Positions 1 to 52,588 of a DNA stretch of 53,344 nt are shown here, piece by piece. This DNA comes from a virus (taxonomy: Duplodnaviria; Caudoviricetes). The stretch's first letter is position 1. Each line of letters starts with the position of its first letter. The translations under genes were made by a program, and so were the position numbers. The stretch covers positions 1 through 53,344 of the IMG/VR virus record IMGVR_UViG_3300030329_003045; one strand, given 5' to 3'. The notes below the pieces were generated by a model. That model did not search any database and was not told the origin of the DNA. It saw only the letters and a list, made by a program, of their open reading frames with translations.

Positions 1-328
1 GTGATATATATATACCCACTTATACCAAACAGTCCCATAAAGAATTGCTGTGTATGCTTAATATATGCAGGATAAATACTAGTAAGACCAAATAGATACG
101 TGTTATCATAATTAAGCTATGATAGATGCAATGGATGTGTTATATGTGTGAAATTTGCCGTAATGTTACACATATATAATATTAAGTTGTAGTTCACTGA
201 TTATGAGCGAATAACATTACTAGGTGTGACTGACACTTAAACTAAACAGTCAGGCTATGAAAGTCGTGGATGGTATTAGAGCTACCAACATCATGTAAGT
301 CCATATGTTATAATAGTATTGAGGTTCT
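1..328. repeat. Imperfect terminal repeat, copy A (allele A of an assembly bubble)
   Basis: 1-77 is identical to 52993-53069 and 252-328 is identical to 53268-53344 (both exactly 77 bp); the sequence between is homologous but divergent. Confidence 0.95.
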
Positions 329-398
329 ATGTCCTGTCACGGGATACTTGATATGATGTATAATAAGGTTTGTGCGTTCCTACCAAAAATGCACAAAT
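100..398 (+). ncRNA. Unnamed multi-stem, pseudoknotted ncRNA
   Basis: Stems 137-150/169-182, 160-167/213-220 and 227-232/247-252 are preserved by compensatory or G-U changes in the second allele; further hairpins run to ~398; no ORF; boundaries approximate. Confidence 0.75.
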
Positions 399-403
399 TA
401 TTC

Positions 404-600
404 TTCGAGGTAGTATAAATGTAAGGAAAGTGAAGTGTTATGTAAAACACTATGTCAGTAGTAAGGTTGACATCTTGCTGACACAGGATTAAATGGTCAA
501 CAGCATAATTAAAAGCAAGTACTTACTATGTCTTTAAGACTTTGAAATAATACTCAGAGCTGAAATGCCTGCAATGTAGGTTTGAATCCTGCTCTCGTCA
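404..600 (+). ncRNA. tRNA-like RNA (GAA-centred loop) with ~130-nt structured insert in the D-loop
   Basis: Acceptor CGAGG 406-410/TCTCG 593-597, TA linker, D-stem GTAT 413-416/ATAC 550-553, loop CTGAAAT 560-566, T-arm GTAGG-TTTGAAT-CCTGC 576-592. Confidence 0.55.
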
Positions 601-639
601 TAAATTATAACTTGTAACTCTAACCAATAAGGAGACACT

Positions 640-837
640 ATGTCTATAAATAATGTAATACCCAATGATATTGTCTGTGAAGACAGTCTAGATAACCAAA
701 TGCAGGCTTTCTTAGCTGCTATGAGGGATATACTAGATACTCAATGTAGAATGATGGTAGATAAGGATAGTTATGTGGAGCGGAGAAGAGTAAAGAAGAT
801 ACGTGGGGCAAGATTTAAGGTTATCTCTAAAACCTAA
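640..837 (+). CDS. Hypothetical protein (65 aa)
   Basis: ORF with AAGGAG RBS, located between RNA elements. Confidence 0.65.
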   Translation: MSINNVIPNDIVCEDSLDNQMQAFLAAMRDILDTQCRMMVDKDSYVERRRVKKIRGARFKVISKT

Positions 838-844
838 GAATATA

Positions 845-922
845 GGGCATGATATGGTATTCGACTGCTTAAGGCTTCAAGGAGCTGGTAGTAGAACGTG
901 AGTTCGATTCTCACCATGTCCA
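845..922 (+). ncRNA. Minimal tmRNA-like RNA (tRNA-like domain only, no tag reading frame)
   Basis: GGGCATG/CATGTCC acceptor with G3-U70 and discriminator A; tmRNA-type stemless D region ATATGGTATTCGAC; T-arm GTGAG-TTCGATT-CTCAC preceded by GAAC; P2 capped by a short hairpin. Confidence 0.8.
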
Positions 923-927
923 CTAAC

Positions 928-989
928 AGAGAAGTGTATCCAGGTAAGGTATAATGCGAATTATAACCCATGATCCCAAAAGCTTCTCT
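928..989 (+). ncRNA. Small stem-closed RNA module with GNRA hairpin
   Basis: AGAGAAGT/GCTTCTCT closing stem; inner ATAAT-GCGA-ATTAT. Confidence 0.45.
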
Positions 990-1049
990 AAATTTTCTAT
1001 TGACGAATAGGAGACTTTTAGTTGATTGAACGATAACAACTATTAGTAT

Positions 1050-1144
1050 CGCGGGGTGGAGCAGCCAGGAATAGGATAAGCTATCTTATATAGCTCACTG
1101 GAAGAAATATCCAGAGGTCAGGGGTTCAAATCCCCTCCCCGCTT
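1050..1144 (+). tRNA. Initiator-tRNA-like RNA with D-loop hairpin insert and non-canonical anticodon loop (AGAAATA)
   Basis: CGCGGGGTGGAGCAGCC..GG..TAGCTC matches the bacterial tRNA-fMet scaffold, including an unpaired C1; stem CTGGA/TCCAG; T-arm AGGGG-TTCAAAT-CCCCT; 21-nt insert at 1070-1090; no CAT anticodon; no CCA. Confidence 0.75.
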
Positions 1145-1151
1145 AAGAATT

Positions 1152-1886
1152 TATGAACAACGAATAATAGGCCGCTTCGGGTCTTTGAGGATAGTATATG
1201 GTAACATATATAAAGTTAATAGCGCCAGTAATGGTCCAACGGAAGCAAGCAAGTATTGCTGCTGATCTCAATGGGGTAATCCCTGAGAGAATGGTAGTCT
1301 TTGCGATGGTAAGCGAGTGAGTCTGGTGACAGGCAATAAATAAACTTGTAAGGTACTTAAGCTGAGCATGTAGGGTGTTAAGCTGGGTATTATGAAGATA
1401 TGCTAATCTTGTAGTGATATAAGATATGTGCGTATAGAGATTTGATGTATCCTAAATACATTGGAAGAGTCTAGTAGAGTATTCACTGTCGTAAGATAGT
1501 GAGCTTTATCCACGAGCACTGGACTTGGATTGCCTAAAACTAACTTAATCGTTAAATAATATATAAAATAGAATATAAAAACGACAAAGTTCTTGTGGCG
1601 TTACAGAGCATAGGGCTCTAATCCCTTACACTTTTGTGAATAAGGGGCTGGATAGTTGGTCAACAACTTGAAGGTTTTGTGATGAAAGCGTCAGTCTTGG
1701 GTCTGCAGCCTGGGATGTCATTGTGACTTAATTGAGGTGAGTAGTTGCTGAAACAACTGTAACGTTAAGAGTGATAGTCTATAACTATTGAGCTTGCTGA
1801 TGTACTTCTGTCAAAGGGAGTGGATAAGAGGAGAATAAATAATACCTCGAAAGTGTCAGCGTATCAAGTGTAATCTCAACTTGTAA
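1152..1886 (+). ncRNA. GOLLD-like giant ncRNA
   Basis: ~730 nt without an ORF, downstream of a tRNA-like gene; many short GTAA/GCAA/GTGA-type hairpins in the 5' half; 3' end TACTTCT..AAAGGGAGTGGATAAGAGG..AATAAT.CCTCGAAAG..GTGTAATCTCAAC resembles the GOLLD 3' domain as I recall it; boundaries approximate. Confidence 0.7.
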
Positions 1887-1927
1887 TAAATACTCCAATA
1901 ATGGTAATTAACCAACAAGGAGTAATT

Positions 1928-2095
1928 ATGCCAAATAAACAAGCAAAAGAACGTAAACGTATTAAAGCTGAACTTAATAAATCTCTAAAACTGAATGGTA
2001 GGACTGCTAATCAGGTAAAAAAGATTAAAGCTAGAAATATTGAGAGAAAGAAGAAGCTTGAGAAACGTTTAAAGGAACGTGGGTTGCTTAGGTAG
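1928..2095 (+). CDS. Small highly basic protein (MPNKQAKERKR...GRTANQ)
   Basis: AAGGAG RBS before ATG 1928 (the ORF track starts at 1901); Lys/Arg-rich. Confidence 0.75.
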   Translation: MPNKQAKERKRIKAELNKSLKLNGRTANQVKKIKARNIERKKKLEKRLKERGLLR

Positions 2096-2100
2096 CCCAC
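2079..2100 (+). terminator. GC-rich hairpin at the end of the basic protein gene (possible terminator or processing site)
   Basis: GTGGGTTGC-TTAG-GTAGCCCAC; no U-tract. Confidence 0.4.
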
Positions 2101-2118
2101 ATAAACTTAGGAGGTAAC

Positions 2119-2247
2119 ATGGATATTTGGATTTATGATTTATTTTGGTTAGTAGAAACAGCCATAACAATAGCTATTAAATATTATATATTAATTGCTG
2201 CCTATAGATTTGTAAGAGCACGAAGGTGGCCTAAATGGAACATATAG
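2119..2247 (+). CDS. Small membrane protein (42 aa; not in ORF track)
   Basis: AGGAGG RBS; MDIWIYDLFWLVETAITIAIKYYILIAAYRFVRARRWPKWNI. Confidence 0.65.
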   Translation: MDIWIYDLFWLVETAITIAIKYYILIAAYRFVRARRWPKWNI

Positions 2248-2255
2248 GTAGTATT

Positions 2256-2390
2256 ATGAAAAATATATTAAATAAATATCATCTATGTGAGATATGTAAT
2301 GAGTTTTATAATAAGAACAAAGAAATATGTGATGATTGTGAAACTGAAATTGATGAAATAATGGCTGAAGGTGAGAATTTTGAATATTAA
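2256..2390 (+). CDS. Small zinc-ribbon-like protein (44 aa; not in ORF track)
   Basis: CEIC...CDDC pair in MKNILNKYHLCEICNEFYNKNKEICDDCETE... Confidence 0.55.
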   Translation: MKNILNKYHLCEICNEFYNKNKEICDDCETEIDEIMAEGENFEY

Positions 2391-2424
2391 CTGCGATAGA
2401 GTATAATCTCACTGCAGTTAACCA

Positions 2425-2669
2425 GAGTTTGTTAAGGAGTCGCTTGGGGTCGATAAGAACCCTTGCGATTAAAGAGTATAGTTTATGAGACTGGACTAGA
2501 AGGGTTGAGATCCTTTTAGTTAGCCATGAGCCGCAACGTGTGGTTGTTTGAGTGCTTGTGGTAAGTAGCAGACGTGTGAAACTAACTATTAATAAACTCA
2601 CCAAATTGGTAGGAGAGACAAGAGGTCTATAGAAGTGTGACAACAACCACTTAATAGCTATAGATCTTT
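2425..2669 (+). ncRNA. Unnamed ~245-nt structured RNA with long-range loop pairing
   Basis: Closing stem 2425-2435/2589-2599; internal hairpins; stem 2621-2632/2658-2669 whose loop AACAACCAC (2642-2650) complements GTGGTTGTT (2540-2548). Confidence 0.65.
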
Positions 2670-2726
2670 AACACCCATCATCGATAGGAATACCTGAAGG
2701 CTTTAACAAGCTGTTGGTGGGTGTTA
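2669..2726 (+). ncRNA. Small three-way-junction-like RNA module
   Basis: TAACACCCATCA/TGGTGGGTGTTA stem enclosing AGG-AATA-CCT and GCTT-TAAC-AAGC. Confidence 0.45.
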
Positions 2727-2759
2727 TAAAATTGATAATAACAATAACATGGAGGTCAC

Positions 2760-2918
2760 ATGGACAACAAAAAAACAATGTTAATAGTAGTTGGTTTAAT
2801 AGTAATTGCTTTATTTGGATGGGCAGTATCGGGAAGCTCAGATGATATTACTGAACCTGAAACTGTTGATACTGAAGCTGTTGACACTGAGTCTAACTCA
2901 GAAGAAACTACTGAGTAA
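2760..2918 (+). CDS. Small membrane-anchored protein with acidic tail (52 aa; not in ORF track)
   Basis: GGAGG RBS; MDNKKTMLIVVGLIVIALFGWAVSG followed by a D/E/T-rich tail. Confidence 0.75.
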   Translation: MDNKKTMLIVVGLIVIALFGWAVSGSSDDITEPETVDTEAVDTESNSEETTE

Positions 2919-2925
2919 TTTAAAA

Positions 2926-3006
2926 TAGGGCTGTAGTGACAGGCGAGTGATGGAGCGGTAATGCTTAATAAATGATATCCACACTAACGAGGGTCAATCA
3001 GCCCTA
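2926..3006 (+). ncRNA. Stem-closed RNA module
   Basis: TAGGGCTG/CAGCCCTA, TGAC/GTCA and inner GTG..TGGA/TCCA.CAC pairings. Confidence 0.45.
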
Positions 3007-3016
3007 AAAAACTGAC

Positions 3017-3078
3017 TGGCATACTCAGGGTAGGGAACTTAGCGAACCTGATAGGGAGTACATCTACAATGTATGCCA
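3017..3078 (+). ncRNA. Stem-closed RNA module
   Basis: TGGCATAC/GTATGCCA with inner TCAGG/CCTGA. Confidence 0.45.
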
Positions 3079-3103
3079 AAAATTTAAAAGGAGGATTAAA
3101 CTT

Positions 3104-3292
3104 ATGAAAAAAGTATACATATTATTTACAGATGCAAGATCACTTGGTAGAGTACCTATGGAAGATGAATGGGATAAGGAAATAGTAGGAATATATACTA
3201 ATAGAGCAAATGCTGAGAAAGATCTTCCTAGTAACACAGAAAATAATGTTTACTATATAGAAGAACATCAAATAGAAGATATTAAGGAGTAA
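3104..3292 (+). CDS. Hypothetical protein (62 aa)
   Basis: AGGAGG RBS; typical small phage early protein (KVYIL...IVGIY...AE...YYIEE). Confidence 0.75.
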   Translation: MKKVYILFTDARSLGRVPMEDEWDKEIVGIYTNRANAEKDLPSNTENNVYYIEEHQIEDIKE

Positions 3293-3294
3293 TA

Positions 3295-3558
3295 ATGGAT
3301 AAGCATAAATACAGACATAAAAAATATGATACAACTATTATGCAGACAGTAACTGTTGGAAATATTGTAGAATCATTAATTCTTGGTATTAAACACAGGA
3401 ATTTAAAAGAAGTGGTAAACTTTTTAGCAGAACAAAGAACTAAAGCATTATTAAAATGTGATAGAAGAAAAGTAAGTAGTACTGATAGAAAGATTAAACA
3501 CTTGAAGGAATTAGGGTATAATATACCAAAGGAGGTAGAAGATGGCCTTAATGTTTGA
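3295..3558 (+). CDS. Hypothetical protein (87 aa)
   Basis: RBS AAGGAG, tightly coupled to neighbours. Confidence 0.7.
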   Translation: MDKHKYRHKKYDTTIMQTVTVGNIVESLILGIKHRNLKEVVNFLAEQRTKALLKCDRRKVSSTDRKIKHLKELGYNIPKEVEDGLNV

Positions 3559-3691
3559 ACCTGTTAGAACAGAAAATGACATAATAAAAGAACTTATTGA
3601 ACTTAAGAATAAACAGTCTGTCCTAAGAATTAAAGAAAATAAACTAATAGATGAATTAGTTCAAGTTAATAGGGAGGATAAAAATGAGTAG
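3542..3691 (+). CDS. Small coiled-coil hypothetical protein (49 aa; not in ORF track)
   Basis: AGGAGG RBS upstream of ATG 3542; fills the operon gap. Confidence 0.6.
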   Translation: MALMFEPVRTENDIIKELIELKNKQSVLRIKENKLIDELVQVNREDKNE

Positions 3692-3773
3692 TTTAATAAG
3701 TATACTATTAATATTTATAGCATGTCTAACATGGGCTGTTATTTGGTATTATATAGTAAAGAAGTTGTTTTGA
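3684..3773 (+). CDS. Small hydrophobic peptide (29 aa; not in ORF track)
   Basis: GGAGG RBS; MSSLISILLIFIACLTWAVIWYYIVKKLF. Confidence 0.55.
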   Translation: MSSLISILLIFIACLTWAVIWYYIVKKLF

Positions 3774-3774
3774 T

Positions 3775-3954
3775 ATGGATATAGGTATGTTAGAAGCAAA
3801 CACTGTGATATTGAGAAAGACCGTGAAATACTTAGATGGTGAGATGAAAATTGTTGTTGAGAAGAGAATTAAAGATAATTATAAACTAATTGATGGATTC
3901 TTTGATGAATTAGCACAAGAATATAAATCAATACAATCGTACGAACAAGAATAG
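3775..3954 (+). CDS. Hypothetical protein (59 aa; not in ORF track)
   Basis: Open frame coupled to the upstream stop, ending at the RBS of the Ubl gene. Confidence 0.55.
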   Translation: MDIGMLEANTVILRKTVKYLDGEMKIVVEKRIKDNYKLIDGFFDELAQEYKSIQSYEQE

Positions 3955-3962
3955 GAGGCCTT

Positions 3963-4181
3963 ATGGCAACTAAAACAATCAAATTTCTACAAGGTGGCGG
4001 CTTTGTGGAAAGACAAACTAACGCTGATACTGTTGAACAATTAAGAAATGAATTTCCAGATGACATAACTGCGAATTCATCTGTTGCTGTTAATGGAGTA
4101 TCTGTAACTAATACACACGAAGTAAATGAAGGTGATATTGTTGCAGCTGTTAATAACAATAAATCTGGTGGTGATCAGTAG
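3963..4181 (+). CDS. Ubiquitin-like beta-grasp protein (ThiS/MoaD-like) with C-terminal GG plus DQ extension
   Basis: 72 aa; TVEQL..., VAVNG..., EVNEGDIV..., NKSGG-DQ; AGGAGG RBS; upstream of E2, JAB and E1 genes. Confidence 0.85.
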   Translation: MATKTIKFLQGGGFVERQTNADTVEQLRNEFPDDITANSSVAVNGVSVTNTHEVNEGDIVAAVNNNKSGGDQ

Positions 4182-4200
4182 ATAAGTAAATGAATAACTT

Positions 4201-4285
4201 TAAAGGGAGAGTTACGGCTAAAACCACCATCCGTTAATATACTAGACCACATCGGAGTGCTAGTTAAGCGTGGTCTCTCTCTTTA
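4201..4285 (+). promoter_or_regulatory. Intergenic stem-closed RNA structure between Ubl and E2-like genes
   Basis: 11-bp stem TAAAGGGAGAG/CTCTCTCTTTA plus TTACG/CGTGG, just before the RBS at 4294. Confidence 0.5.
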
Positions 4286-4302
4286 TTAACCTTGGAGGGT
4301 AT

Positions 4303-5670
4303 ATGAATAATTATGAAGTAGTATATGTCGACGAACAAGACATTGGACAAGCTATAGATTTTATAGATTTAGATGCTATGGCTGAACACATTTATTTTGG
4401 CCCACAAGCTGAAATAATGGAGAAATTAAATCTATTTAACCAAAGAAATGACTGTAATTTAAGTGTTACTAAAACATTTAGATGGTCACCTGGTACTTAT
4501 GATAAAGTAGCTGAAATGATGATGAGAAGAGTTGGGTTGAGAAGAAGAGCATCTGGTATGTATAGTTATTTATCTAGAGAAGAGTATTATTGGGGTCCAG
4601 GAAGACAGAACATACAAGAAGATCTAAGAGATATGGATAGAATAATTACTAATTTAAGATATCAAGGAGTACAATGGTTAGAAGATCCATCTATATTAAT
4701 TGAAAGAAAAGAGACATTTAAGAATTATATATGTGAAAAATTCGAAGGTCTTCTTGAATTAATAGGAAAAATGGATAAAATAACCGTATTAGGTGTATTA
4801 TTAGAGCAAGATGGTAGTGCTACAACTAGAAGTTCTAGATTAGTTATAAATTTATGCTTACATCCAGGTGAAGTACAAATATATAATGCTAATAATGGAG
4901 GCACTCCAACACATGTGCAGAATCTACCAGCAGAGATGGATTTATTAGTAAGGATAGAAATGTATCCATTACAAGAAATGATAAATGAAAGACTAACTAG
5001 ATTTAATGTTCATACTTATGGAAGAACAGAATCTTATGATGATAGAGGTGCATTATATTTTCCTTATATAGCTAGAACTGATAGACGAAATAGTTGGAAC
5101 TCGCCTGAAGGGTATGGAACTATTTGTTATGGTGATGACTCTACTGATATTAATCGAGCATTAAACAATTTTGAATTACCAGCATATGCTATGTTATTAG
5201 TTAATTGGATGGGTAGATATACTCAAAATACTAATCCATATAATAATATTAAGACATTATATCATGGTGAGCCTAAATGGTTAAATGATGATTATAGAGC
5301 TATATTTGGTACAAATAACTGGGATGCATGTAGATATAGACCATCTGGGCATGATGATTACTGTGATACTAATGAGTGTGCATTAAGACATACTTGTGAA
5401 ATATACAAAACAGCATATCCAGAACCAGTAACGCCAGAGCAAGCCGAACAAATGACCTTGCAATGGGCTACTAGAATGGGTGGAGTTGGATCTAATGCTA
5501 GTCAACCGACAGCTGATCAGACTTGGGTTAATCCAGAAGCTGTTAGAGAAGAGCGTATTAATGCTGAAATGGATGCTGAAGAAGCAGAATTAGAAGCATA
5601 TCAAAGAGCTATGGAAGCTAGTATCGAATCAGAACAAGCTGCTGATAACATTATAGAAGAGGAGGAATAA
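4303..5670 (+). CDS. Putative prokaryotic E2-like (UBC-fold) conjugating enzyme with C-terminal Cys cluster
   Basis: FPYI...GYGTICYG resembles the E2 (H)PxI...GxICLG catalytic segment, followed by helices and NPY; Cys4 cluster near the C-terminus; operon context; start moved to ATG 4303 with GGAGG. Confidence 0.6.
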   Translation: MNNYEVVYVDEQDIGQAIDFIDLDAMAEHIYFGPQAEIMEKLNLFNQRNDCNLSVTKTFRWSPGTYDKVAEMMMRRVGLRRRASGMYSYLSREEYYWGPGRQNIQEDLRDMDRIITNLRYQGVQWLEDPSILIERKETFKNYICEKFEGLLELIGKMDKITVLGVLLEQDGSATTRSSRLVINLCLHPGEVQIYNANNGGTPTHVQNLPAEMDLLVRIEMYPLQEMINERLTRFNVHTYGRTESYDDRGALYFPYIARTDRRNSWNSPEGYGTICYGDDSTDINRALNNFELPAYAMLLVNWMGRYTQNTNPYNNIKTLYHGEPKWLNDDYRAIFGTNNWDACRYRPSGHDDYCDTNECALRHTCEIYKTAYPEPVTPEQAEQMTLQWATRMGGVGSNASQPTADQTWVNPEAVREERINAEMDAEEAELEAYQRAMEASIESEQAADNIIEEEE

Positions 5671-5972
5671 TGAGTTTTGTAACAGAAAATAGTATGAAAG
5701 CACATTACAAGAGATTATCTTGTAGAACTATTAAAATAAATGGCGTTAGACTTGATCTTGAGGTTTATAAAACGCCTGATGGTATGACATTTGAGGTAGT
5801 AGAACATGTTCCTGATACAGTATTTGATGATAATTATGTATCAAGACATGAAACACATATCTCTTGGGATAAAATAGTAGACGCTCCAGAAGAGCCTTTA
5901 CCAGAAGAAGATAATGAACCTTTAACAGAAGAAGACGATAGTCTAGGAAGAATGTACGGAGGAGTAAAATAA
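5670..5972 (+). CDS. Hypothetical acidic-tailed protein within the Ubl operon
   Basis: TAATG-coupled on both sides, between the E2-like and JAB genes. Confidence 0.7.
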   Translation: MSFVTENSMKAHYKRLSCRTIKINGVRLDLEVYKTPDGMTFEVVEHVPDTVFDDNYVSRHETHISWDKIVDAPEEPLPEEDNEPLTEEDDSLGRMYGGVK

Positions 5973-6919
5973 TGGAAGTTTATATAGATAAAGAATGTTG
6001 GGATAAGATAATAAATTATGCCAAAGCTGCTTATCATACTGAAAAGTGTGAAATAGGCGGTATGTCAGTAGTAACACAAGATAAAGATGGTGATTGGCTT
6101 ATTCAAGAGCCTGTAATACTAAAACAGGAGATAGGGAGCACTACTTGTGACCTAGATAAAGAGGAATTAGCTAAATATTACACTAAAATGGCTGTAAAAT
6201 ACAATGAAACCAACTTTAGATTCTGTTGGTGGCATAGTCATCACACAATGGGAGCATTTTGGAGTGGTACAGACATATCAAGTATAGATGAATATGGTGA
6301 AGGAGAGTCAGATTTAAGCTTTGCTCTTGTAGTAAACCTTAAAGAAGAGTATAAATGCAGAGTTTCTGTATGGAAACCAGTAGAAATTCATCAAGATGTT
6401 GAACTAAAGATACTTAGTGATAAGCCTGATGTAGAAATACCACTTGATATAGTTACTGAAGTTAAAGAAAAGTGTGAAACTAGATCAATAGTTAATACTG
6501 GATACTCTAAAACTCAAAATGGCAACACAACTTTGCCTTTATGGGACAATACTCGTAATAATTGGGCTAGTTATAAGATGCTAGAAGATGATTTAACCAA
6601 TGTATATGTCCCTAGTCAGCAAGAAATAGCTAATTTTGAGGCTAAATATGAGTATGCATGTATGAAAGCTCAAGAATTTCTACATCAAGTAACAGTTGGT
6701 GGCTGGTCTATGCATAAATTCAAGAAAGCAATCAGAGAAACTAACAAACAAATAGCAAAATATGGTGTTCAAATAGAAGAATTGAACAAAAGAGAGCTAA
6801 AAGAGTTCGTAGAAATGGAGTCAGCTCCATATGAACTTGTAGCTTCTGATGCTAAATTCGCTGATATTGCTGATGCAATGATGGAAATGCACAGTTATAA
6901 TGGAGGATACATGATATGA
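5972..6919 (+). CDS. JAB/MPN+ (JAMM) metalloprotease (Ubl-processing/deconjugating)
   Basis: E(IGG)...WWHSHHTMGAFWSGTD fits HxH-x7-S-x2-D. Confidence 0.9.
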   Translation: MEVYIDKECWDKIINYAKAAYHTEKCEIGGMSVVTQDKDGDWLIQEPVILKQEIGSTTCDLDKEELAKYYTKMAVKYNETNFRFCWWHSHHTMGAFWSGTDISSIDEYGEGESDLSFALVVNLKEEYKCRVSVWKPVEIHQDVELKILSDKPDVEIPLDIVTEVKEKCETRSIVNTGYSKTQNGNTTLPLWDNTRNNWASYKMLEDDLTNVYVPSQQEIANFEAKYEYACMKAQEFLHQVTVGGWSMHKFKKAIRETNKQIAKYGVQIEELNKRELKEFVEMESAPYELVASDAKFADIADAMMEMHSYNGGYMI

Positions 6920-7569
6920 TTAACTTAAGAAGTCAAGACATTGCAAATTTAGATAATGTTGAATTCCATATTGTAGGTTGCGGGGCTATTGGAAGCTCCG
7001 TGGCCATGCAATTAGTAAGATTGGGAGCAAATAACTTCTATTTGTATGATTTTGATAAAGTAGAAATACAAAATGTAGGTGTAAGCCAATACAATGAACA
7101 AGATGTAGGGCTGCCTAAAGTAGGTGCTTTAATAAATCATATGAAAAGAATAAATGTGTTGATAAAAGTTCAAGGATATATGTCTAAATTTACAAATTAT
7201 AGAGGTAGTAAAGAAGGTATATTGATTCTAGGTTTAGATAGTATGAAAGCTAGAAAAGATATAGTTGAATTGCTAGTAAATTGCCCTGATAAGCCTAAAA
7301 TAGTAATTGATGGCAGGATGGGAGCTGAACATTATCAGCAATACATATATGATAACATAACTATGGCTAAATATGAGAAAAATTGGTATTCTGATGAGGA
7401 ATCTGATCAAGAACCATGTACTCGTAAAGCTACAAGTTACTGTTCAAATATGAGTGGTAGTTTTATAGCAAACGCTGCAAAGAATATCGTTATGAAACAG
7501 CCATATTTTAAAGAAATTAGTTTCAACTTTTCAACATTAATACTTGATAAAAAGAAATTAGTTTCGTAA
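6916..7569 (+). CDS. E1-like ThiF/MoeB-family adenylating enzyme
   Basis: VGCGAIG, DFDKVEIQNV, GLDSMKAR, IDGRMG and putative catalytic Cys in EPCT. Confidence 0.92.
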   Translation: MINLRSQDIANLDNVEFHIVGCGAIGSSVAMQLVRLGANNFYLYDFDKVEIQNVGVSQYNEQDVGLPKVGALINHMKRINVLIKVQGYMSKFTNYRGSKEGILILGLDSMKARKDIVELLVNCPDKPKIVIDGRMGAEHYQQYIYDNITMAKYEKNWYSDEESDQEPCTRKATSYCSNMSGSFIANAAKNIVMKQPYFKEISFNFSTLILDKKKLVS

Positions 7570-15409: not shown

Positions 15410-18400
15410 CTAACAAATTTTTCCTCCTGATTCAATATCATGATACCTATCTCTTAAATCAGCAGGTTTTGTATGTCTATTAATAACCCTACCTTTGACC
15501 GTTGGAACGGACGTATTATCTGGGCCTTTCTCTAAAACAACTCTATTTCTAGTAGTATTTGTCCTTTTATCTAATTGCATATCCAATAAAGTAGATGAAT
15601 AGAATATATCTAAATATCTAGATAAGGATTTTACTGGATTAGCAAGTTCTCCTAAATTTTTATAATCAATACCAATAGTTTGTGAACTTTCCCATTCAGG
15701 AACATTAGGTTTCTTCTTGCCAGTAAAGGCAAGTTGAACTTGTTTCATCAATCTTTTAGCAAACCCAGCATCACCTCCATAATCAGTCTCAATAATTCTT
15801 TCATTATTTAAAGTCCAATTCAAAATAGTCTTCTGCAAATGTAAATCAGTTTTAAATGTAGGAATATATTGATTGTCTTTACCTATAGCATAACTCTCTA
15901 CTAATTGAGGTTGTAGTAAATATCTTAAAATCAAATCAACAGGATCAATATTTGTGTGTACTTGTGGGACCCATTTATCTAAGAAGTTCTTAATATCTAT
16001 ACCTTCTCTTAAAGCCTGCATCTCATAAATATCTTTACTTAAAACCCTATTAGTTAGAGACTCTTTTATTGCGCCTCTATACCCTGTACTTATTTTGAAT
16101 CTTAAGGCTCTTGCATCAGCTGTAAATTGTACCCAATTATCCATATGAGCGCTCGGAGACATAACCTCATCTCTGGTTACTTCAAATAAAGCTCTACTCC
16201 ATCTCATTTCATTTTCACTAAGATTAACCATTTTTTTAGGTCTAGTATCTATAATATAAGTCATCCCTTTATGTGTACGAATATTATCCCTTATATTACT
16301 CTTAGTATAATAACCTAAGAACTTAAGTTGATTATGCGATATATAATTCTCATCAGTTTTTCCGTGATTTAGATTACCTTCTTTACCTTCTTTATTAAGT
16401 TTGTTTATCTCAGTAACATCTACATCGCCTTTTATTGCATATATTGCAACCCTATCTCTCTTTGCTGCCTTTAAAACATTTTTAATTTTAATCTGACCAT
16501 TCTTCTTTCCAACAATAATTTGATTTTTAGGGTCTCTGATAACCATATCTCTAGCTAGCTGAACATCCATTATATCCATAGCTTGTTTTAAATTGGCTAA
16601 TCTATGTTGAAGTTTTTGTATCTTATTAGGATTTGCAAATGGTTCATTCATAAAATAATCAAATGAATTAATAACGTCATCGTGCTGTTTTTCGAGCAAG
16701 TTTCTTAATATACCATTATTCATTTGTTTCCTATACCTTTTTGGATCTGTCTGGCCAAAAGATTTTAAATTCAAAGCAAATTCATATTCTCCAGTAGCTG
16801 TTCTTCCTGTTAATATTTCAACAGGATCTTGTCCAAAGGCTCTAATAACTTCTACAAAATTCTCAATTCTATCAACAAAAATTCCAGCCTTTTGAAAATT
16901 CTTACCATTATCTAAACTTCTTAATCCTTCAAAATTAGTAGTAAACCAAGCTTTATTTTGATTTAAATCATAAATAGTTCTACCGCCTATAGACATAAAG
17001 AAAGGATTATTATCTGTTTTATCAGATAAAGCATCAATAGTAGGGACATTTTCAAATCTAAATCTTATTTTACCTAAAGTAACTGGTTCTCCAGTATATA
17101 TTTTTCTATATATCTGCTTTCTTGTAGCCTCATTTTTTACAAAATCCATATAATCTTTACCATAAAACATATCAACATACTCACTAAGCATCAAATCAGC
17201 TTCAGCTTTCTTACCTATGGTTCTATAGTAACTAATTCTATTCATCATTCTTTTACTTAAATATCTTGTAGGATTTAAAAAGAACTCAGACATCCTTCCA
17301 TATATATCTTTTATCTCTCTAGCTTCAGGATTTCTACTACCTGCTTCATCATATACGTCATTTTGGACCATATTTGCCTTTTTTAGCAACCTTACTACCT
17401 CAAAGAACATCTCCTTCTCTAATGTATTATTCTTTCCAAAATTAGGGTGATCTTTACCAAAAACGTTTACATCATCTACCGCATATTTATTAAATATATC
17501 GTCAGTTTCTCCTCTTTTCTTTAATTGCTGAGCTTTGTCTTTGTAATTTTTAGGGGTTCCAAAGAATAAAAAGTCCATTAAATCTGCCTGAGCTCTCATT
17601 ATTCTATGAATACCGCCATGAATATCTACAGAATTCTGCATAGTATCATAAAATTTACTTAACCATTTCCATTCAGGACTATCCAAGGACAATTTATCCT
17701 CATTAGAAAATTTCTTTAAAAGGTCCTTACCATCTAATTGCATTCCTAACTTATCAAGCCAAGATAATGCGTTCCTTATACCAACAACTTGACCTATAGC
17801 CATTTTTGCTTGAGATAATTTACTAGCATAACTGTGAAAACCAACATCAGTAGCTATTTCACCAGCTTTTCCACCATCTCCTATACCAAATATATTTATA
17901 TAATTTTCTTGACCAATAACATCTTGAACATCAAACATTCTGAAATCATCTTTCTTTCCATTCTGTCTAGCAAAAGCTTTTAATATTCCTTCTGGAAGTT
18001 TTTGATGCATATAAAAATGGTCACCATCATTATCACGTTGTAAAACAGTACGTAAATCATGCACATTTATTTCAGCTAAACCATTCATTTGTTTTAATAC
18101 TTTTCCTACTCTTAATATAACCTTATCATGTCCTAGAGCTGGTATAGCATGTCCTAACATACCAAAAGCTAACTTTAATTCTTGAGCATCTGTTATAGCC
18201 CTTTTTGTTAATTTTACTACTTTACCATTTTTTGTTATTGTATTTCCATCCATCAATCGAATAACATCAGAGTAATTTAATCCGTGTTTTTGTACCTTTT
18301 TATTAATCTCATTTAAAGTAACCTCAATACGTTTCTGCCTAGACTTGAAAGATTTAGAATCCATATTATAACCTTTTTTAAATAAATCACCCTCATATTT

Positions 18401-21400
18401 CTTACTACCAGTTGCACCATCCCAAGTCTCTATATCATGCCCTTTGTGCATTTTTATATGGTCATAAAATGGACTTTCATAAATAAACTTATTACCGTTC
18501 CATCTAACGATAACATCAATTCCATTATGGTCTCTAAATATAAAGGTCTCATCAACAATATTAGATACTCCATCATGTTTACCTAAAAGTCTTCTACTTT
18601 GATTTCTATTTATAGATGTCTCTCCATACTGTATAGTAGTTCTATTTTTATTAAATCTATCAATATGCCCTGCACGCATTTCTGTAAACTTAGCAAAAAT
18701 TGGAACAGCAAGATCAGAATTTACATTAGGAACTATAAAATTATCCTCTCCACCACGAACATGAGCTTGTTTTAAATCCTTATAATTCTGACTTCTCATT
18801 AATCTCTTTATTGCAGGCATTATTATAGGACTAGAAGGGCTAACACCGTACTCAAATACAAGCCTAGCTAAACCTTGATCTCCTAAGTTAAGTGGATTTC
18901 CTTCTGCTTCATTTATCCCATACAACCACTTAGTATAACCTCCAGGATCTTGTTCTATACCGCCCCATTCATTAGCTATTTGAAGAAACTTGTCTTGAAA
19001 TTTCATCCATTGCATTGCTTCTTTCATAACTGTTGGACTTTGAAAATCAAATATAGAAGGAGATATTACTCCTCCTTTAGCATTTTTAGATACAAATGAT
19101 ATGCCTATAGATTTAATAGGTATAATCATTCTATTTTGATCTTGAGCCATATGTAGTCTATCAAGACCTTTAGAAACATCGGTAGGTTTTAAATCTCTAT
19201 TAGTTATAGGTGTTTTACCAGTAAATGATTTAGCAGATTCAGAACCAATAATAATATCAGCTCCTTTAGGCATATATTGCGCTATATCTGGATGGTATAT
19301 TAGAAAACCTTTACCTAACATTTGATTATCTCCAGTAGCAAATATAATAGTTTTTGCACCATTAGGTTTATTTAAGAAATTATCAATATTTTCACCCTTA
19401 TGAGCCATAACAAGCCTCATAAAGTCTAAAGAAGCAAATTTAGCGCCATCAAATAATGAATTATCTAAGCTTTTTAAATTCTGTAAGTTTTCTTGATTTT
19501 GTAATAAAACACCTTGTAATATTTTATTCTGAACTTTATTTACATTTTTTGCAATCTGCGCATTTACATCGCTAATTTTTGACTCAATTTGTCTTTGAGT
19601 TATACCTTGAATATTTAATGGATGATTAATATCTCCCTTAACAGTTGACTCATCAAACACAACAGTGTCATGACCATCTTGTTTTAAAGCCTTTAAAGCA
19701 GCATCTCTAACCTTTTTATTGGGATGGCCCATAACACGTGCAAGTTTAGTTCCTGGAATATTTTCTGTAGATACTATCCAATTTAGAACTCTTTTACTCA
19801 TAGGTTGAGTAGTACCACCATCTGTTAGGTTTCCTCTTTTAAATATATTCATCTGTATTTTCTGAAGATTAGCTTTATCTCCAGCAGTCCAATCGCCTAG
19901 AAATTGATCAAACCCTTGTCTACCACCTTGAATATCAATATAAGGTAACATTAATTTTAGTTCAACTAAATGTCTAGCCCCAACATCTTCTGGTTTAGTC
20001 TTATCTCTTAATTGTCCAAATATATTCCTAAAGTTATCAAGCTCTTTATTTTTATTAGCATCTTTCAATCTTTTCTCAGTAGCTACAAACCAACTCTCAA
20101 AATCATTATTTAAATTCTCAATATTTTCTTTGGTTCTCGCAAATAAAACTCTATTTTTAGGTGATACTCTAACATAATAAAAGAAATCTTTAATATTTTC
20201 TTGCTTCAATAAAGAGGCAACTTCACTTTCAGATAACTCATAAGTCTCTGCTAATTTTCTTAATACCTCTTTATTAGCAGCAGATTCTCTTATAGAATTA
20301 TTTATAATCTTTTGAACTTCAACAGGATTTGATATTAACTGATCAAGACTTCCTGATCTTAATTTGCCTGCTATCTCAACATTAATACCATCGTCTAAAT
20401 AAATTACTTTTAATTTCTTATCACCAAAATAAGTTCTACCTGGATAAGTCACTGATGGAGTATCGTTATTAAATAAAGTTATAGCTCTTTTACCTTCACC
20501 ATAACCTATTATTTTAACTGTAGGTACAGATTGTTGATTCTCTATATAACTTAATATTTCTATTGCATGTCTCTCTTTGAACTGTCTATATAGTGCTACT
20601 CTTTCACTAGATGAAAGTGGTTGACCATTGCTATCGGTTCTCTGATTAATATGGTTAAGTATATAATCATTAAATGCTTTTACATCATCAGCTAATAAGG
20701 CTGCTTTGAACCCTTCATCTATTTTATTCTTTTTATCAACTAATCCGTACTCTCTTAAAACCTCAATAGGAGTCTTATGTCTTTCATGCATAGCCCTACC
20801 TTCATCTTGAGATTTTCTAATTAAAGACATTTCCTCATTTAATACATGGTCAGGATTATTTAATATAACTCTTTTATTAATTTCTTTATTTATTTCCTTA
20901 AATAATTCAACTGCCTCTCCAAATAATCCTCTTTCATTAACTTGTTCTATAACCTCAGATAACGATCTTTTTTGCTTATTAACGTCCTTAGTAAATAAAA
21001 CATTCCAATTATTTACAAGTTTATCCATAACAGCCTGAAAATCATTCTCTCCTAACCCATAACCTGCTTTACCCTCTAAAGCTAGATTTTCTATTTTTAC
21101 AATCAAATTATTTAGATGATTTAATCCTTGATATTCTCTTTTAAATATATCTGCAACTCTATTTTGTAGTGGCTCTAATATAGCTTCACGAACTCCCCAT
21201 CTATCTCCTTCTTGATCAAATTTATCCCTTTGTTCTTGAGTTAGGAGCTTCTTAATAGGATAAGTCCATTTAGATGTTTGTTTGCTAATATTACTCTTTA
21301 ATTCATTTAAAGTAATAATCATTTCATCAACATCTTTTTCAGTAGCGGTTCTATCTTTACCTTCAGCATTTGGTCTTTTAGCAGCTTTAGAAAAAGCATC

Positions 21401-24400
21401 TAATTCAGCAATTATAGATTCTATCTCCTTTATAGGATCTTTAACAGTTACCTCTTTTTCAGGATCTAATGAGTCTATAATATTGGTTATTTTAGCTTGA
21501 ATTGAGTTTAACTTAGCAGGAGCACCTCCATCAAGATTATATGCCTTTTCTAGTGCCGTTTTAGCCTTTCCCATAAGGTCCATAAGAGCATCATTACCTA
21601 AAAATTTATATACTCTCGCATAATCTTGTATATCAATACCTTCTGTAAGTAATGTTCCATCATCATGAACAGGTATTATATCAGTCTCTTTAACAGTATC
21701 TCCAAGAACATCTTTTAAAGATTTTCTACCTTTTAACATAAGTTGTATTTCTCCTTGAGAAAATCCTTCATCTAAAAGATATTGCTTTAAAGCTTCTTCT
21801 GATGGAATCTGAAACTTTCCATCTCTAAGAACACCTAATCTTTTACTTTGCGCATAATGAGCAGCTTTAAGGGCTCTTGAATCTAACCCTATATTATGAT
21901 ATATTCTATCTAAGTAAGCTTCACCTACTTTACCTTTAAAGTCAGCTTGAAATTCACGTGGCAATGCTTTAAATAAAGATATAAAAGAATCATTAGCAAC
22001 CTGAAGATCTGCTCTTTCAATCTTTCTATTAGGAGATTTTGTAGTTTGTCCTCCTAAATGTACTTTTCTTAAGTCAAATAGAGGCTTTAAAGTATGCAAT
22101 ATTAAGTCAGCTTCTTCTTTTACTTTACTTTCAGGAGTACCTTCTTTTGCGTCTCTAACATATTCTTCGATAACTCTTTTATATTCATTTATATCAGCAT
22201 GATACTTACCATCTATCATAAATATTTTATCAAGAAGTGTAGTTAAATCTTTATCTTTTACATTCTTTGATTTACCAGTAATAATATCAAACAATCTTTC
22301 ATTAGTAGCTACAGCCTTAGCTCCAGTATAAAACTTCATAAATTGATTACTATCAGGCATAATAAACTTACCTTTATTAGCAAAAGTTAATGAAAGTTCG
22401 CTCATATTTTTCTCTATAACTTCAGACACTCTAGCTTTTAACTGCTCAACATCCATATTATTTGCCTTAGCAATCCATTCCATAGTTCTTTCTGCCTTTA
22501 CTCCTGGCTGTATACGTGAAGCATCACCGTTGTTACGAAAAATATCTAAAACTCTATTTATATTATGTATCATGCCAAGATCAACACCATCTTCACCAAC
22601 AGATCTTGTTTCTGCATAAGTAATTTTACCATCTGAAGATACACTAATGTCAAATCCTAATTCATTTAATTCTGCAAACATCCTTTTATAAAGATTCATA
22701 GCTTTATTTAAAGGTTCTCCAGTCATTCTAATCATAGCATGAAACCATGCATCTGTACCTTTTTGACCTAAGGTCTGAATTTCCCCTGTACCCTTATCAA
22801 CACCTATAGATATTTCTCTAATATTGTTAGCAATTTTATTTATAGTTCCCTCAGATAGGAATAAAATACGGTCACTTAAAGATTTCGCATCTGGATTCTT
22901 TGTGATATTCATAATATCATACATATCAGCAAATTGTTGAACTAGTTTTAAATCAGGATTGTCAGCGCTATGCTTTCCAGTTGGATTTTTCTCTCCACCC
23001 TCTAAACCCTTATCAAAAGCGGTTAGTATTTTTTGACCTGTTTCAGAACCTGCTAGATGTTCACCTGTAGCAAATCCCTCTCCGTCCTTCCATTGCTTGA
23101 ATCTGAACAACATTTTTGCTCCATCGGCATCTACCCCTAGAATACGCATTGCCTCTGTATATGGCTTAAAATCAGCGAAATACTGCCTTTTATTCTTATG
23201 CCCCCATGCACCTCTACCTTTAACCATCATAAATGACATCATCATATGTGCACCAAGTTCTGAACTATCCATGTCACTCCAGGCATTTTTATCTAATACC
23301 CAAGGATTCATTACAAGAGTACCTGCAGCCATTCTTGGAAGAGACTTTCCTAAATCTGCTAAGTACTTTGGACCCCATTTACCAAGCATTTCACTAGAAA
23401 CTTGCTTATTTATCTTATTTAAAAGAACTTTAGTATGTTCAACATTCATTGTTCCGTTCTTTATTCTAGCTAATATATCATCAGCACCTTTATAAATTTC
23501 TTTTGTTTTACCTTTTCCTACAGTCCACCATGCTGTTCCTAGTTTATTTGAATTCCATACTGATCTTTTGCCTGAAGGAGATACCATTAATCTTAATAGG
23601 TTATTAACAACATCATCTCCATGTTCTGCTTGAATCTTACCATAATCTATATTTTTATATCTACCAAAATAAGCTTTAAATCCTGTAGTTAGATTATCAT
23701 TACCACCTCCAGGAAGAAGTCTAATTAAAGGAAAAGCTAAAGCCATTTTACCTGAATGGCTTAATGTCTCCATAGGGTCAAAATGTTCTCCATAAGCGTG
23801 AGATTTTACAGCACCAGAAATCAATCCATGAGCAGTCATCATAGCCATATCTTGAGTAGCCATACCTAGATATTTTGTTACACCACTTCTAACTCTACCA
23901 GGAGCAGCGCCACCTAACGCTCTTGCAGTCCACTCAGCAATATCATCTACATAATGTCCTGCAGCTAAATCATCAACCCATCTTCCAGCTAAATTAGTAG
24001 CATCTAGTTTAGTTAATTCAATTCCATGCTCTTTGAAAGCTCTAGAGATTGCACTTCCACCAGTACCTACTAAATTTTCTTTAGCCTCATCTAAAGCTCT
24101 ACCTTGGCTACGTAAATTCTTAATCCAACCAACGGTTAAATCATTTTTTGAAGTTTTTTGTATAGCAGCATAAACATCATCTCCAAACCCTTTAATTGCA
24201 TCATCTACAGATATACCTTTTGCTTTAGCAATTTCTTCTGCTTTTTCGATAATTCTATTAGCGGTTGGAGCGTCAAAGTTTTTAGTTATAGATTTTCTAG
24301 TTATATTATCAGCAACATCTTTAGCAGCTTTACCAACAAATTTATTCGCACCTAATCTAGTAACAGCTCTTCCAGCTCTAGCCATTTGACCAAATGCACC

Positions 24401-51984: not shown

Positions 51985-52173
51985 TTAGCTTATCCCTAAA
52001 TCTATACCATCTACATATTTCATCATATATTCTCCCATCTCATTTGTTATGGGTACATCATAACCATCAACCTCAATAACAAAATTAATATTCTCATCAA
52101 AAGCTTCTGATAAATGCTCTATCTCATCAGTCTTTGGATCATAAACTATTTTAAGTACATATTCTTTTTTCAT
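51985..52173 (-). CDS. Hypothetical acidic protein (first gene of the - arm)
   Basis: AGGAG RBS. Confidence 0.7.
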   Translation of the reverse strand: MKKEYVLKIVYDPKTDEIEHLSEAFDENINFVIEVDGYDVPITNEMGEYMMKYVDGIDLGIS

Positions 52174-52244
52174 ATTAGATACTCCTAACCCTGATAGTTT
52201 GAAAATTTTAAAAAAATTTTATTTTAACTTTAAATTTCGCTTTT

Positions 52245-52408
52245 GAGCCAGTTATATTCTCCCATACTCAAACTTATATTAAAGCACTTTATATCAGTTA
52301 TCGGGGACAATCTAGACTTCTATATGAACTAGCAACCCAACGTCTGACCCTCTACTTGTTTGTTAGACCTTCAAGGGTGATAATTGAAATCAATCAATTA
52401 CTGATGGG
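52245..52408 (-). ncRNA. Structured 5' leader or ncRNA at the head of the late operon
   Basis: Begins right after the putative promoter; minus-strand pairings ATCAGT/ACTGAT, TAATTGA/TCAATTA, ACCCTT/GAGGGT, GTCT/AGAC, GGG-CTAG-TTC/GAA-CTAG-CCC, CCCAT/ATGGG. Confidence 0.5.
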
Positions 52409-52410
52409 TA

Positions 52411-52441
52411 TAATATAATATATAAAATATTAATAATGCAA
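52411..52441 (-). promoter_or_regulatory. Putative promoter of the structural operon
   Basis: Minus strand TTGCAT-N17-TTATATTA in the AT-rich divergent intergenic region. Confidence 0.55.
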
Positions 52442-52588
52442 AGGTTTTAAAAATTGTGGCATTTTGGTGCTTGGCCTTTTATATATACCCGTACCCCATA
52501 AATGGGTTTTTTACATTCGTAATTACGTTATTTTTGATTTTATATTATTTGTTGATTTTTAGTTATAATAATTATGGAGGTATAACTA

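Follow-up and report, generated by a model that had tools for sequence, protein, structure and literature searches.

What fills the first 3 kb of a phage genome that is almost everywhere else packed with protein-coding sequence? Here, we address this question for the window of 53,344 bases that constitutes the entire IMG/VR virus record IMGVR_UViG_3300030329_003045 (Duplodnaviria; Caudoviricetes). The record is rated 99% complete, and the public runs that contain the phage sequence are marine metagenomes. An earlier note, made from the letters alone, had interpreted the left end of this DNA as an RNA island of about ten structured RNAs without any functional tRNA. We found that the centrepiece of the island is one RNA of the GOLLD family, preceded on the same strand by an 81-nt RNA that consists of the tRNA-like domain (TLD) of a transfer-messenger RNA (tmRNA). 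The locus is real, and a known RNA family, with the tRNA company which that family usually keeps, accounts for most of it.

GOLLD RNAs, of which one member is known to form a hollow 14-mer cage, are among the largest and most ornate RNAs of bacteria and phages; the family was first described in 2009. In the window, the Rfam GOLLD model RF02032 matches positions 1467-1882 of the plus strand with 168.4 bits (cut-off 150, E 1e-45), over its whole length (model positions 1-416 of 416). This model spans only the conserved 3' half of GOLLD. The variable 5' domain, the roughly 300 nt before it, is 77-96% identical in ten related contigs (L135, L131 and L172-L178 among them), and in an alignment of eight sequences, seven of them homologues, 22 of 91 predicted pairs keep their pairing through two-sided changes. 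Approximately 1163-1882, about 720 nt, is one GOLLD RNA. It is found in the company known for the family: the record encodes the terminase, portal and major head proteins of a phage, and tRNA-shaped elements (the TLD and a pseudo-tRNA) lie directly 5' of GOLLD. Contigs from RNA libraries (three runs from two studies, one of them carrying a 96% variant) span positions 1179-1828; these are assembled contigs, which record presence in RNA libraries and not ends, strand or level. The elements at the core of the locus are the following, by position and strand.

845-925, plus strand: TLD-only tmRNA-like RNA, 81 nt (Rfam tmRNA alignment, fold, homologues)
926-1049, plus strand: hairpin-rich spacer, the first part of insertion 2 (folding z = -3.02)
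1050-1144, plus strand: candidate pseudo-tRNA resembling tRNA-Met/fMet (ARAGORN call, fold, alignment to the tRNA-Met of relatives)
1163-1466, plus strand: variable 5' domain of GOLLD (homologue identity and covariation)
1467-1882, plus strand: conserved 3' domain of GOLLD (RF02032 match)

The element at 845-925, which the earlier note had correctly picked out as tmRNA-like, scores 45.4 bits with the Rfam tmRNA model RF00023 (cut-off 47, E 6e-16). It aligns over both ends of the model and has 18 nt where the model has 312 internal positions. The fold comprises a 7-bp acceptor stem with G3-U70, a T arm, a discriminator A and an unpaired block, GGUAUUCGAC, as the analogue of the D loop, while a 6-bp central helix capped by a small hairpin replaces the mRNA domain and the pseudoknots. 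The features of the tRNA-like domain of tmRNA (acceptor stem with G3-U70, T arm and UUCGAC D-loop analogue) are thus all found here, and the mRNA-like domain with its resume codon, tag frame and pseudoknots is absent. ARAGORN at default settings called no tmRNA. The element is not a full tmRNA; it is TLD-only, with all parts of the TLD and nothing else. Its 3' end reads UCCA-CUA and has no encoded CCA, and a CCACCA end occurs only in the copy of contig L175.

Homologues of this element score 53.2, 59.1, 61.2, 66.4 and 69 bits with the Rfam tmRNA model (59.1 bits in L135 and L170, 53.2 bits in L131 and L168). With a TLD model, R1, we obtained 95 bits at 845-925 and 61-112 bits in nine other contigs. 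A pattern scan of the JGI/TARA metagenomes supplied seven further TLD contigs (61-104 bits with R1), and in six of these a GOLLD (148.8-168.9 bits) starts 300-320 nt downstream. The TLD abuts GOLLD in two IMG/VR relatives and in these six metagenome contigs. In the seventh, L175:1-1028, the 3' part of a ROOL RNA comes first and is followed by three tRNAs, a TLD-only gene (69 bits, with encoded CCA) and another tRNA, so that the mini-tmRNA is also found beside ROOL, the other cage-forming phage RNA. When R1 was applied to 117 GOLLD loci and 46 other sources, it detected no copy beyond the three already known and three weak hits (33 bits, 76 nt); the TLD-only element therefore appears specific to this marine group. 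Altogether there are six distinct sequences in ten contigs, all with G1G2G3 and U70, a UCGAC D-loop block, the central helix and the T arm. G3-U70 stays constant although the adjacent pair 4:69 has undergone a compensatory exchange, C-G in some copies being G-C in others, and the central helix varies in sequence yet remains paired across the six versions.

What normally stands in the position taken by this element? Among 43 relative records, found through the JAB protein of the phage, seven carry GOLLD, and the 5' neighbour of GOLLD in these seven is a tRNA-Met(CAT) in three, the TLD-only element in two and nothing detectable in two. For a wider comparison we used GOLLD-pattern loci of IMG/VR. 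A sequence-only nhmmer profile of the GOLLD of this lineage was too narrow, recognising 15 of 117 pattern loci, and was replaced by the Rfam model on 49 records; all 49 records searched match GOLLD, 48 of them above the cut-off. In the 48 loci validated in this way we defined the upstream slot as a tRNA ending 560-1150 nt before the GOLLD 3'-domain pattern. A canonical tRNA occupies it in 21 of the 43 loci with enough upstream sequence (10 Met, 7 Gln), and a tRNA lies just downstream of GOLLD in 19 of 46; for all 117 pattern loci the values are 33/100 upstream and 41/109 downstream. Thus, the TLD-only RNA holds the usual tRNA position of GOLLD loci. The closest complete relative, G001/L002, has neither GOLLD nor a tRNA nor a TLD, hence the RNA island is not fixed in the lineage. 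As a separate observation, weak matches to the tRNA-Sec model (35-39 bits) were noted at L170:499-572 and L172:3576-3649 (minus strand). They lie upstream of the gene homologous to 640-837 (described below) and resemble tRNA-Met: the loop is CUCAUAA, CCA is encoded and the D arm is unusual. ARAGORN misses both.

Between the TLD and GOLLD, this strain has 237 nt (926-1162, insertion 2), made up of the spacer and the pseudo-tRNA. Contigs L173, L174 and L177 carry an identical TLD that abuts GOLLD directly and lack 926-1162, and in a DNA contig of run X3 the 3' end of the TLD likewise comes directly before position 1163. The minimum-free-energy fold of 1050-1144 is a cloverleaf with a C1xU72 mismatch, a normal T arm and a 23-nt insertion in the D loop that forms a hairpin. 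Its anticodon loop, AGAAAUA, has G33 and no CAU. The sequence can be aligned to the tRNA-Met(CAT) genes of L165, L167, L169 and L157, which agrees with its earlier reading as tRNA-fMet-like; no homologue was found in the other loci compared. ARAGORN at default settings labels it tRNA-Stop(tta), in an alternative fold, and one might suppose a working ochre-suppressor tRNA with anticodon UUA and a long variable arm, given that the hairpin AGCUA-UCUUAUA-UAGCU has a perfect 5-bp stem and a 7-nt loop. However, the D arm of that fold is poor, its stem having one Watson-Crick pair, one G-U wobble and two positions that do not pair normally, and the anticodon loop has C33 and U37. The minimum-free-energy fold and the tRNA-Met alignment place the anticodon arm elsewhere, the Rfam tRNA model does not match 1050-1144 at E up to 10, and long open reading frames (ORFs) fill 97% of the rest of the record under code 11, so no reassigned stop codon has to be served. 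We consider a suppressor tRNA very improbable. A canonical tRNA would be a cloverleaf that has a regular D arm and a usable anticodon, with U33 and a purine at position 37, and would match the tRNA models; 1050-1144 does not answer this description and cannot plausibly decode. Insertion 2 thus appears to carry a decayed, tRNA-Met-like pseudo-tRNA acquired by this strain.

The earlier statement that the island holds no functional tRNA is borne out for the whole 53 kb, where no canonical tRNA was detected by ARAGORN (one odd gene) or by Rfam at gathering scores (only GOLLD). A third imitator of translation RNAs, a tRNA-Phe-like RNA, had also been proposed. We rejected it as noise: relaxed ARAGORN calls at 254-344 and 2429-2526 are no stronger than calls obtained in coding sequence (3551-3636 and 3715-3809), and no further hit to the Rfam tRNA model appeared at E up to 10.

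How does this arrangement compare with systems already described? According to the excerpted text of bioRxiv 10.1101/2024.12.08.627333, the env-38 GOLLD is an 833-nt RNA that forms a 14-mer cage by cryo-electron microscopy, GOLLD often lies near tRNAs (env-38 itself 3' of a Met-tRNA), and the linker sometimes contains tRNAs. The GOLLD of the window shares with env-38 a full 3' domain above the cut-off, a structured variable 5' domain, a phage genome and a tRNA-shaped gene directly upstream, and its presence in RNA-library contigs is noted here. It differs in that the 5' domain is about 300 nt instead of 420 nt, that a TLD-only tmRNA mimic and a pseudo-tRNA stand upstream in place of a working tRNA, and that there is no downstream tRNA in a 53-kb genome without a tRNA array. 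A pseudo-tRNA is also described in the cited part of PMC6582537, inside a GOLLD in Mycobacterium. Both cases have an adjoining tRNA shape seemingly unable to decode; however, the mycobacterial one lies within the GOLLD gene in a cluster of 32 tRNAs, whereas ours is a recent upstream insertion in a tRNA-free genome. As to the TLD, mycobacteriophage DS6A is listed as having a "TLD only" tmRNA (PMC4131195; also PMC11915505), and the same sources, as excerpted, describe plastid tmRNAs that lack the coding sequence; the likeness to DS6A is one of description only. A TLD-only tmRNA is therefore not new as a kind. What differs from the DS6A type is the coupling to GOLLD (nine contigs) or to a ROOL-side tRNA array (one contig) in marine phages, and what is new is a TLD-only tmRNA that occupies the tRNA slot of GOLLD in a marine phage lineage.

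We propose that the left end is an accessory-RNA stretch in the early/replication arm of the genome, consisting of GOLLD with a TLD-only partner, and to this account as a whole we assign a probability of roughly 0.6. The identities of the elements are the firmest part and very probably right, while the processing and SmpB steps are tentative and fall somewhat short of even odds. A single precursor would carry GOLLD together with the TLD and, in this strain, the pseudo-tRNA. The tRNA-shaped parts would be excised by host enzymes, RNase P acting at the 5' end and a tRNA endonuclease at the 3' end, and these cuts would also set the 5' end of GOLLD. The freed TLD-only RNA may retain the features recognised by alanyl-tRNA synthetase and SmpB (the alanine identity pair and the SmpB-contacting block), and because of these it could compete with host tmRNA for SmpB, so that ribosome rescue and tagging would be damped during infection. 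A molecule similar to a TLD-only RNA is described in the cited passage of PMC4131195 as a strong inhibitor of tmRNA, perhaps through titration of SmpB. GOLLD itself would assemble into a 14-mer cage as in env-38. Two folded elements farther downstream, motif B (2605-2727) and motif A (2923-3012), would act in cis as leaders of the genes behind them, in regulation, stability or processing.

Several observations weigh against this account. The TLD lies 1.6 bits below the Rfam tmRNA cut-off, and its discriminator is followed by CUA, so that the 3' end would have to be trimmed and given CCA before charging. The search pattern for the TLD fixed the T arm and UCGACUG, so constancy there arises in part by selection and proves nothing. 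The pseudo-tRNA is confined to one strain and lacks comparative support. Matches to sigma-70-like promoters are not enriched (23 found and 20.4 expected) and intrinsic terminators number 0; these signals yield no transcription map. The RNA runs, being assemblies, cannot show starts, ends or strand, and co-transcription and tRNA-type processing are at present what we infer. Motif A covaries at only 2 of 18 pairs, and recognition as DNA could account for its invariant core.

According to the earlier note, the island would be an early cassette transcribed as one unit, with some ten RNA effectors or decoys that are separated at tRNA-like punctuation and directed against host translation quality control or RNA-sensing defences. 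This account seems to us unlikely as a whole, although parts of it stand. A conserved promoter-like motif precedes the elements, all of which share one strand of the early/replication arm; several of them are conserved, and for the TLD-only RNA there is the published inhibitory precedent cited above. However, about 720 nt of the supposed series of effectors is a single GOLLD, three pieces are strain-specific insertions, positions 100-640 are not structured above chance and conserved small protein genes interrupt the island. The tRNA-like elements, which could serve as punctuation, are found on the 5' side of GOLLD and nowhere else, and motifs A and B are leader-like, placed before ribosome-binding sites. 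From the supposed link to translation quality control, the decoy idea survives at the TLD-only element only, where we infer it from the DS6A precedent. We find it somewhat less implausible, but still doubtful, that the tRNA-like elements are functionless, decaying leftovers of a phage tRNA array and that the island is a recombination hot spot which gathers insertions. The pseudo-tRNA with its disrupted D loop, without a usable anticodon and in one strain only, would fit such a history, as would the three insertions, which are unrelated to one another and bordered by short direct repeats, and the GOLLD-less relatives that have protein genes in the same space. The TLD does not follow the pattern of a pseudogene: it is kept in six sequence versions with G3-U70 and the pairing of the central helix preserved, and its position relative to GOLLD is always the same. 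For the pseudo-tRNA alone, decay into a leftover is quite likely.

A remnant of the host tmRNA gene would be another source of a tmRNA-like piece, left as the attachment site of a temperate phage that integrates in ssrA; ssrA is a common integration site and its fragments occur in prophages, as stated in the cited part of PMC9004378. Attachment sites, however, carry the 3' end only, while 845-925 has both TLD halves in their normal order around a central helix that is short and looks engineered. No integrase turned up in a scan of 37 protein queries, a set smaller than the full list of ORFs of the record, and the element is tied to GOLLD in nine contigs. We regard this origin as highly improbable. 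Under the preferred account, in which GOLLD is accompanied by a TLD-only partner, the near-complete 53-kb marine phage offers a compact natural test case, with GOLLD head-to-tail with an 81-nt tmRNA mimic and with close relatives that carry a tRNA-Met in the same slot or lack GOLLD. Two questions thereby become testable: does a tRNA-shaped module set the 5' end of GOLLD, and does the TLD-only RNA disturb trans-translation?

Complete tmRNA genes were also found near GOLLD. Of 49 IMG/VR records with GOLLD, 16 have such a gene (52-114 bits), never farther than 3.4 kb from GOLLD, and in eight of these 16 the distance is only 113-155 nt; 15 of the 16 are on the strand opposite to GOLLD, 3' end to 3' end. 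The 16 tmRNA-bearing records (among the sources of L004-L053, G044-G092) all belong to the high-scoring GOLLD group. They may represent one clade of large phages with tRNA islands, and the co-location is a lead and not a statistic. For comparison, according to a survey quoted in PMC9004378, 2.3% of phage genomes carry tmRNA. Literature searches that paired GOLLD with tRNA and phage, or with tmRNA, retrieved no description of GOLLD-tmRNA co-location, supplementary tables aside. In these phages as in ours a tmRNA-type RNA accompanies GOLLD; the difference is that the full-length genes have 378-420 nt and are mostly convergent with GOLLD, whereas here the element is TLD-only and lies head-to-tail on the same strand, at the 5' end of GOLLD. 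It could be imagined that GOLLD cages work with the ribosome-rescue system, because the TLD-only RNA stands in a tRNA slot and is exchanged for tRNA-Met in cousins, because a TLD-only gene also lies in a tRNA array beside ROOL, and because one third of the sampled GOLLD phages carry a complete tmRNA, often no more than about 150 nt from the 3' end of GOLLD. We think this improbable. Were it true beyond shared residence in tRNA islands, GOLLD might serve during infection to present, deliver or sequester certain RNAs (tmRNA-like or initiator-like ones) or else SmpB and ribosomes, and this would be the first functional handle on the family.

The genome around the island has a simple layout. Its minus strand encodes the small and large terminase subunits, the portal and the major head protein, and its plus strand encodes an Erf-type annealing protein, a primase-helicase and a ThiF/JAB pair. 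The RNA island is the start of the plus-strand arm, beside the divergent region that separates it from the packaging genes. The claim of a gene-poor left end was confirmed by the coverage with ORFs of at least 60 amino acids in any frame, 25% for 1-3103 and 97% for 3104-52000. When only ORFs with a ribosome-binding site are counted, 1-639, 838-1927, 2391-2759 and 2919-3103 are non-coding, which amounts to 2283 of 3103 bases, and five to six small genes are interspersed among these stretches. A blastn search of 1-4300 against the phage GenBank collection gave no match. The remaining features of the left end are these.

1-328, plus strand: left copy of an imperfect end repeat (right copy 52993-53344)
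397-606, plus strand: insertion 1 (gap in L174; folding z = -0.77, no structure above chance)
640-837, plus strand: small protein gene, 65 amino acids (AAGGAG ribosome-binding site; relatives by tblastn)
1928-2095, plus strand: very basic small protein, 55 amino acids (ribosome-binding site and frame; tblastn homologues)
2119-2247, plus strand: membrane-like small protein, 42 amino acids (ribosome-binding site and frame; tblastn homologues)
2235-2390, plus strand: predicted CxxC...CxxC small protein, 51 amino acids (reading frame and 96% DNA identity to L174)
2376-2603, plus strand: insertion 3, non-coding, about 225 nt, movable (folding z = -4.51; recurs elsewhere)
2605-2727, plus strand: motif B, two nested hairpins and a long closing hairpin (covariation)
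2760-2918, plus strand: membrane-like small protein, 52 amino acids (ribosome-binding site; 85% amino-acid identity in L174)
2923-3012, plus strand: motif A, 8-bp closing stem, 4-bp second stem, AGG/AGG internal loop and variable hairpin (predicted)
3017-3078, plus strand: hairpin GGCAUAC...GUAUGCC between motif A and the next ribosome-binding site (predicted fold, weak)

The 640-837 protein has tblastn homologues in at least ten distinct sequence types (40-97% amino-acid identity), and in GOLLD-bearing relatives its gene lies directly upstream of the TLD. At least this gene and 2119-2247 are conserved at the protein level in relatives.

The description of the left end as highly paired holds in part. 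Folding z-scores, computed against dinucleotide shuffles, were -2.46 for 845-922, -2.21 for 1050-1144, -4.21 for 2391-2759 and -2.50 for 2919-3103, while two coding controls gave -0.98 and +0.17. Pairing above chance is thus seen in the tRNA-like elements, in 926-1049, in 2376-2603 and in 2919-3103, but not in 100-640 (z = -1.28) or, within it, 397-606. We count eight or nine separate structured elements in 100-3078. The comparison with relatives, which had been suggested as a test of whether the structures are conserved, supports four of them, the TLD, GOLLD, motif B and motif A; for these four, the refuting outcome named in the earlier note, a lack of conservation in relatives, did not occur.

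Three pieces of the left end, 397-606, 926-1162 and 2376-2603, are insertions of this strain, because they are missing from L174, which is 96-98% identical on both sides of the gaps. Their junctions show the short direct repeats AAATTAT, TAA and AATT. Pairwise blastn between the three gave nothing above chance, and we rejected the idea of one mobile family. No homologue of 397-606 was found in any locus compared. Insertion 3 recurs in L176, at 93% identity after motif B, and in L172, at 80% identity between two copies of motif A; its flanks and closing helix are kept in all three copies and the middle is replaced in L172. A 130-amino-acid ORF on the minus strand (2254-2646) was dismissed as a gene since it is broken in L176 and L172, and a group I intron was dismissed as well, as no possible boundary ends in G and no Rfam intron matched.

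In a cmscan of 1-4500 with Rfam 15 at E up to 10, neither 2376-2603 nor motif B nor motif A belonged to any family, and only chance-level matches appeared (MIR2629 at 16.5 bits, TeloSII_ncR30 at 18.5 bits). Motif B, motif A and the movable 2376-2603 are three uncatalogued folded elements, and the two motifs are further conserved phage RNA elements that Rfam lacks. Motif B is complete in 9 of 44 relative loci. Its invariant single-strand blocks are UUGGUAGGAGA, UGACAAG and AAAACAGC, and in most relatives a ribosome-binding site follows. Two-sided changes occur at 11 of its 25 pairs, compared with 4.7 +/- 1.6 in shuffles (0 of 500 reach 11), and 93.7% of cells are paired, compared with 37-43% when the partners are slid. 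For motif A, blastn gave matches in 16 of 44 relative loci, and a pattern search located it in 21 viral contigs. Its 23 distinct sequences share a near-invariant core of 41 nt with hairpin inserts of 30-121 nt; they show one compensatory change, G-C to A-U, and an RNA structure is likely but not proven. Motif A ends 18-30 nt before a start codon, that of a homologue of a 466-amino-acid protein in 13 of 25 contexts and that of the 3295-3558 gene in 5 of 25. The order GOLLD, motif B, motif A is kept in L131 and L135, and sequence similar to 3017-3078 follows motif A in L182 and L191.

Motifs A and B have the look of leaders belonging to the genes downstream, more than that of free decoys. In this they resemble riboswitches and phage antitermination RNAs such as put of HK022, which also combine folds with invariant internal loops, variable hairpins and a place before ribosome-binding sites; the likeness is one of form only, since the motifs have no Rfam match.

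In the RNA libraries, low-depth pieces only were obtained from 2597-2752, 2956-3162, 3138-3289 and 3633-3861. None of the RNA-library contigs lies on 1-1178, which, for assemblies, is no measure of absence or level of transcription. Joints in run X3 that skip 2395-2544, 2950-2980, 1629-1762 and 3659-3962 have short sides and 90% likeness, and were not relied on.

The two copies of the end repeat, 1-328 and 52993-53344, are identical over 1-77 and 255-328 and 86% identical overall, with a diverged middle. They may represent a terminal repeat or a tandem duplication, or else variants of one locus from two strains, placed at the two ends by the assembly. A DNA contig of run X3 extends 149 nt past position 1, and a pattern search of IMG/VR for unique sequence followed by the repeat and the left-copy variant found nothing. 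A 24-nt promoter-like motif (7-30 in the left copy) occurs at only two places in the record, with 0 expected, and once each in L128, L134, L139, L141, L143 and L144, where the conservation extends over about 45 nt. The motif probably serves as a promoter or marks a terminus. The leader that follows in the left copy has predicted hairpins at about 103-125, 136-180 and 255-310, and the 136-180 hairpin is kept in both repeat copies, mostly through changes to G-U wobbles (three sequences only). At the other end of the record, 52172-52590 is an AT-rich, ORF-free gap of 415 nt between the last minus-strand gene and the first plus-strand ORF and is probably a divergent control region. In the structural arm, an ORF of 3097 amino acids (15410-24703, minus strand) has no Pfam match, and its neighbours of 909, 791 and 919 amino acids are likewise without a family match.

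Downstream of motif A, 3963-7569 holds a ubiquitin-like conjugation gene set that is conserved in 44 viral loci. Motif A would mark the leader of this phage gene set. The set comprises a ThiS-like protein of 72 amino acids that ends in SGGDQ (ThiS 19.9 bits, below the cut-off), the 466-amino-acid protein, which matches no family, a protein with a JAB domain (23.8 bits, slightly under the cut-off) and one that is ThiF/E1-like (68 bits). Directly before the gene for the 466-amino-acid protein, at 4185-4269, lies a further hairpin, AAAGGGAGAG...CUCUCUCUUU. The block inside it, GAGAGAGUUACGGCUAAAACCACCAUCCGUUAAUA, recurs with 94-97% identity in L147, L150 and L155, which are more distant relatives.

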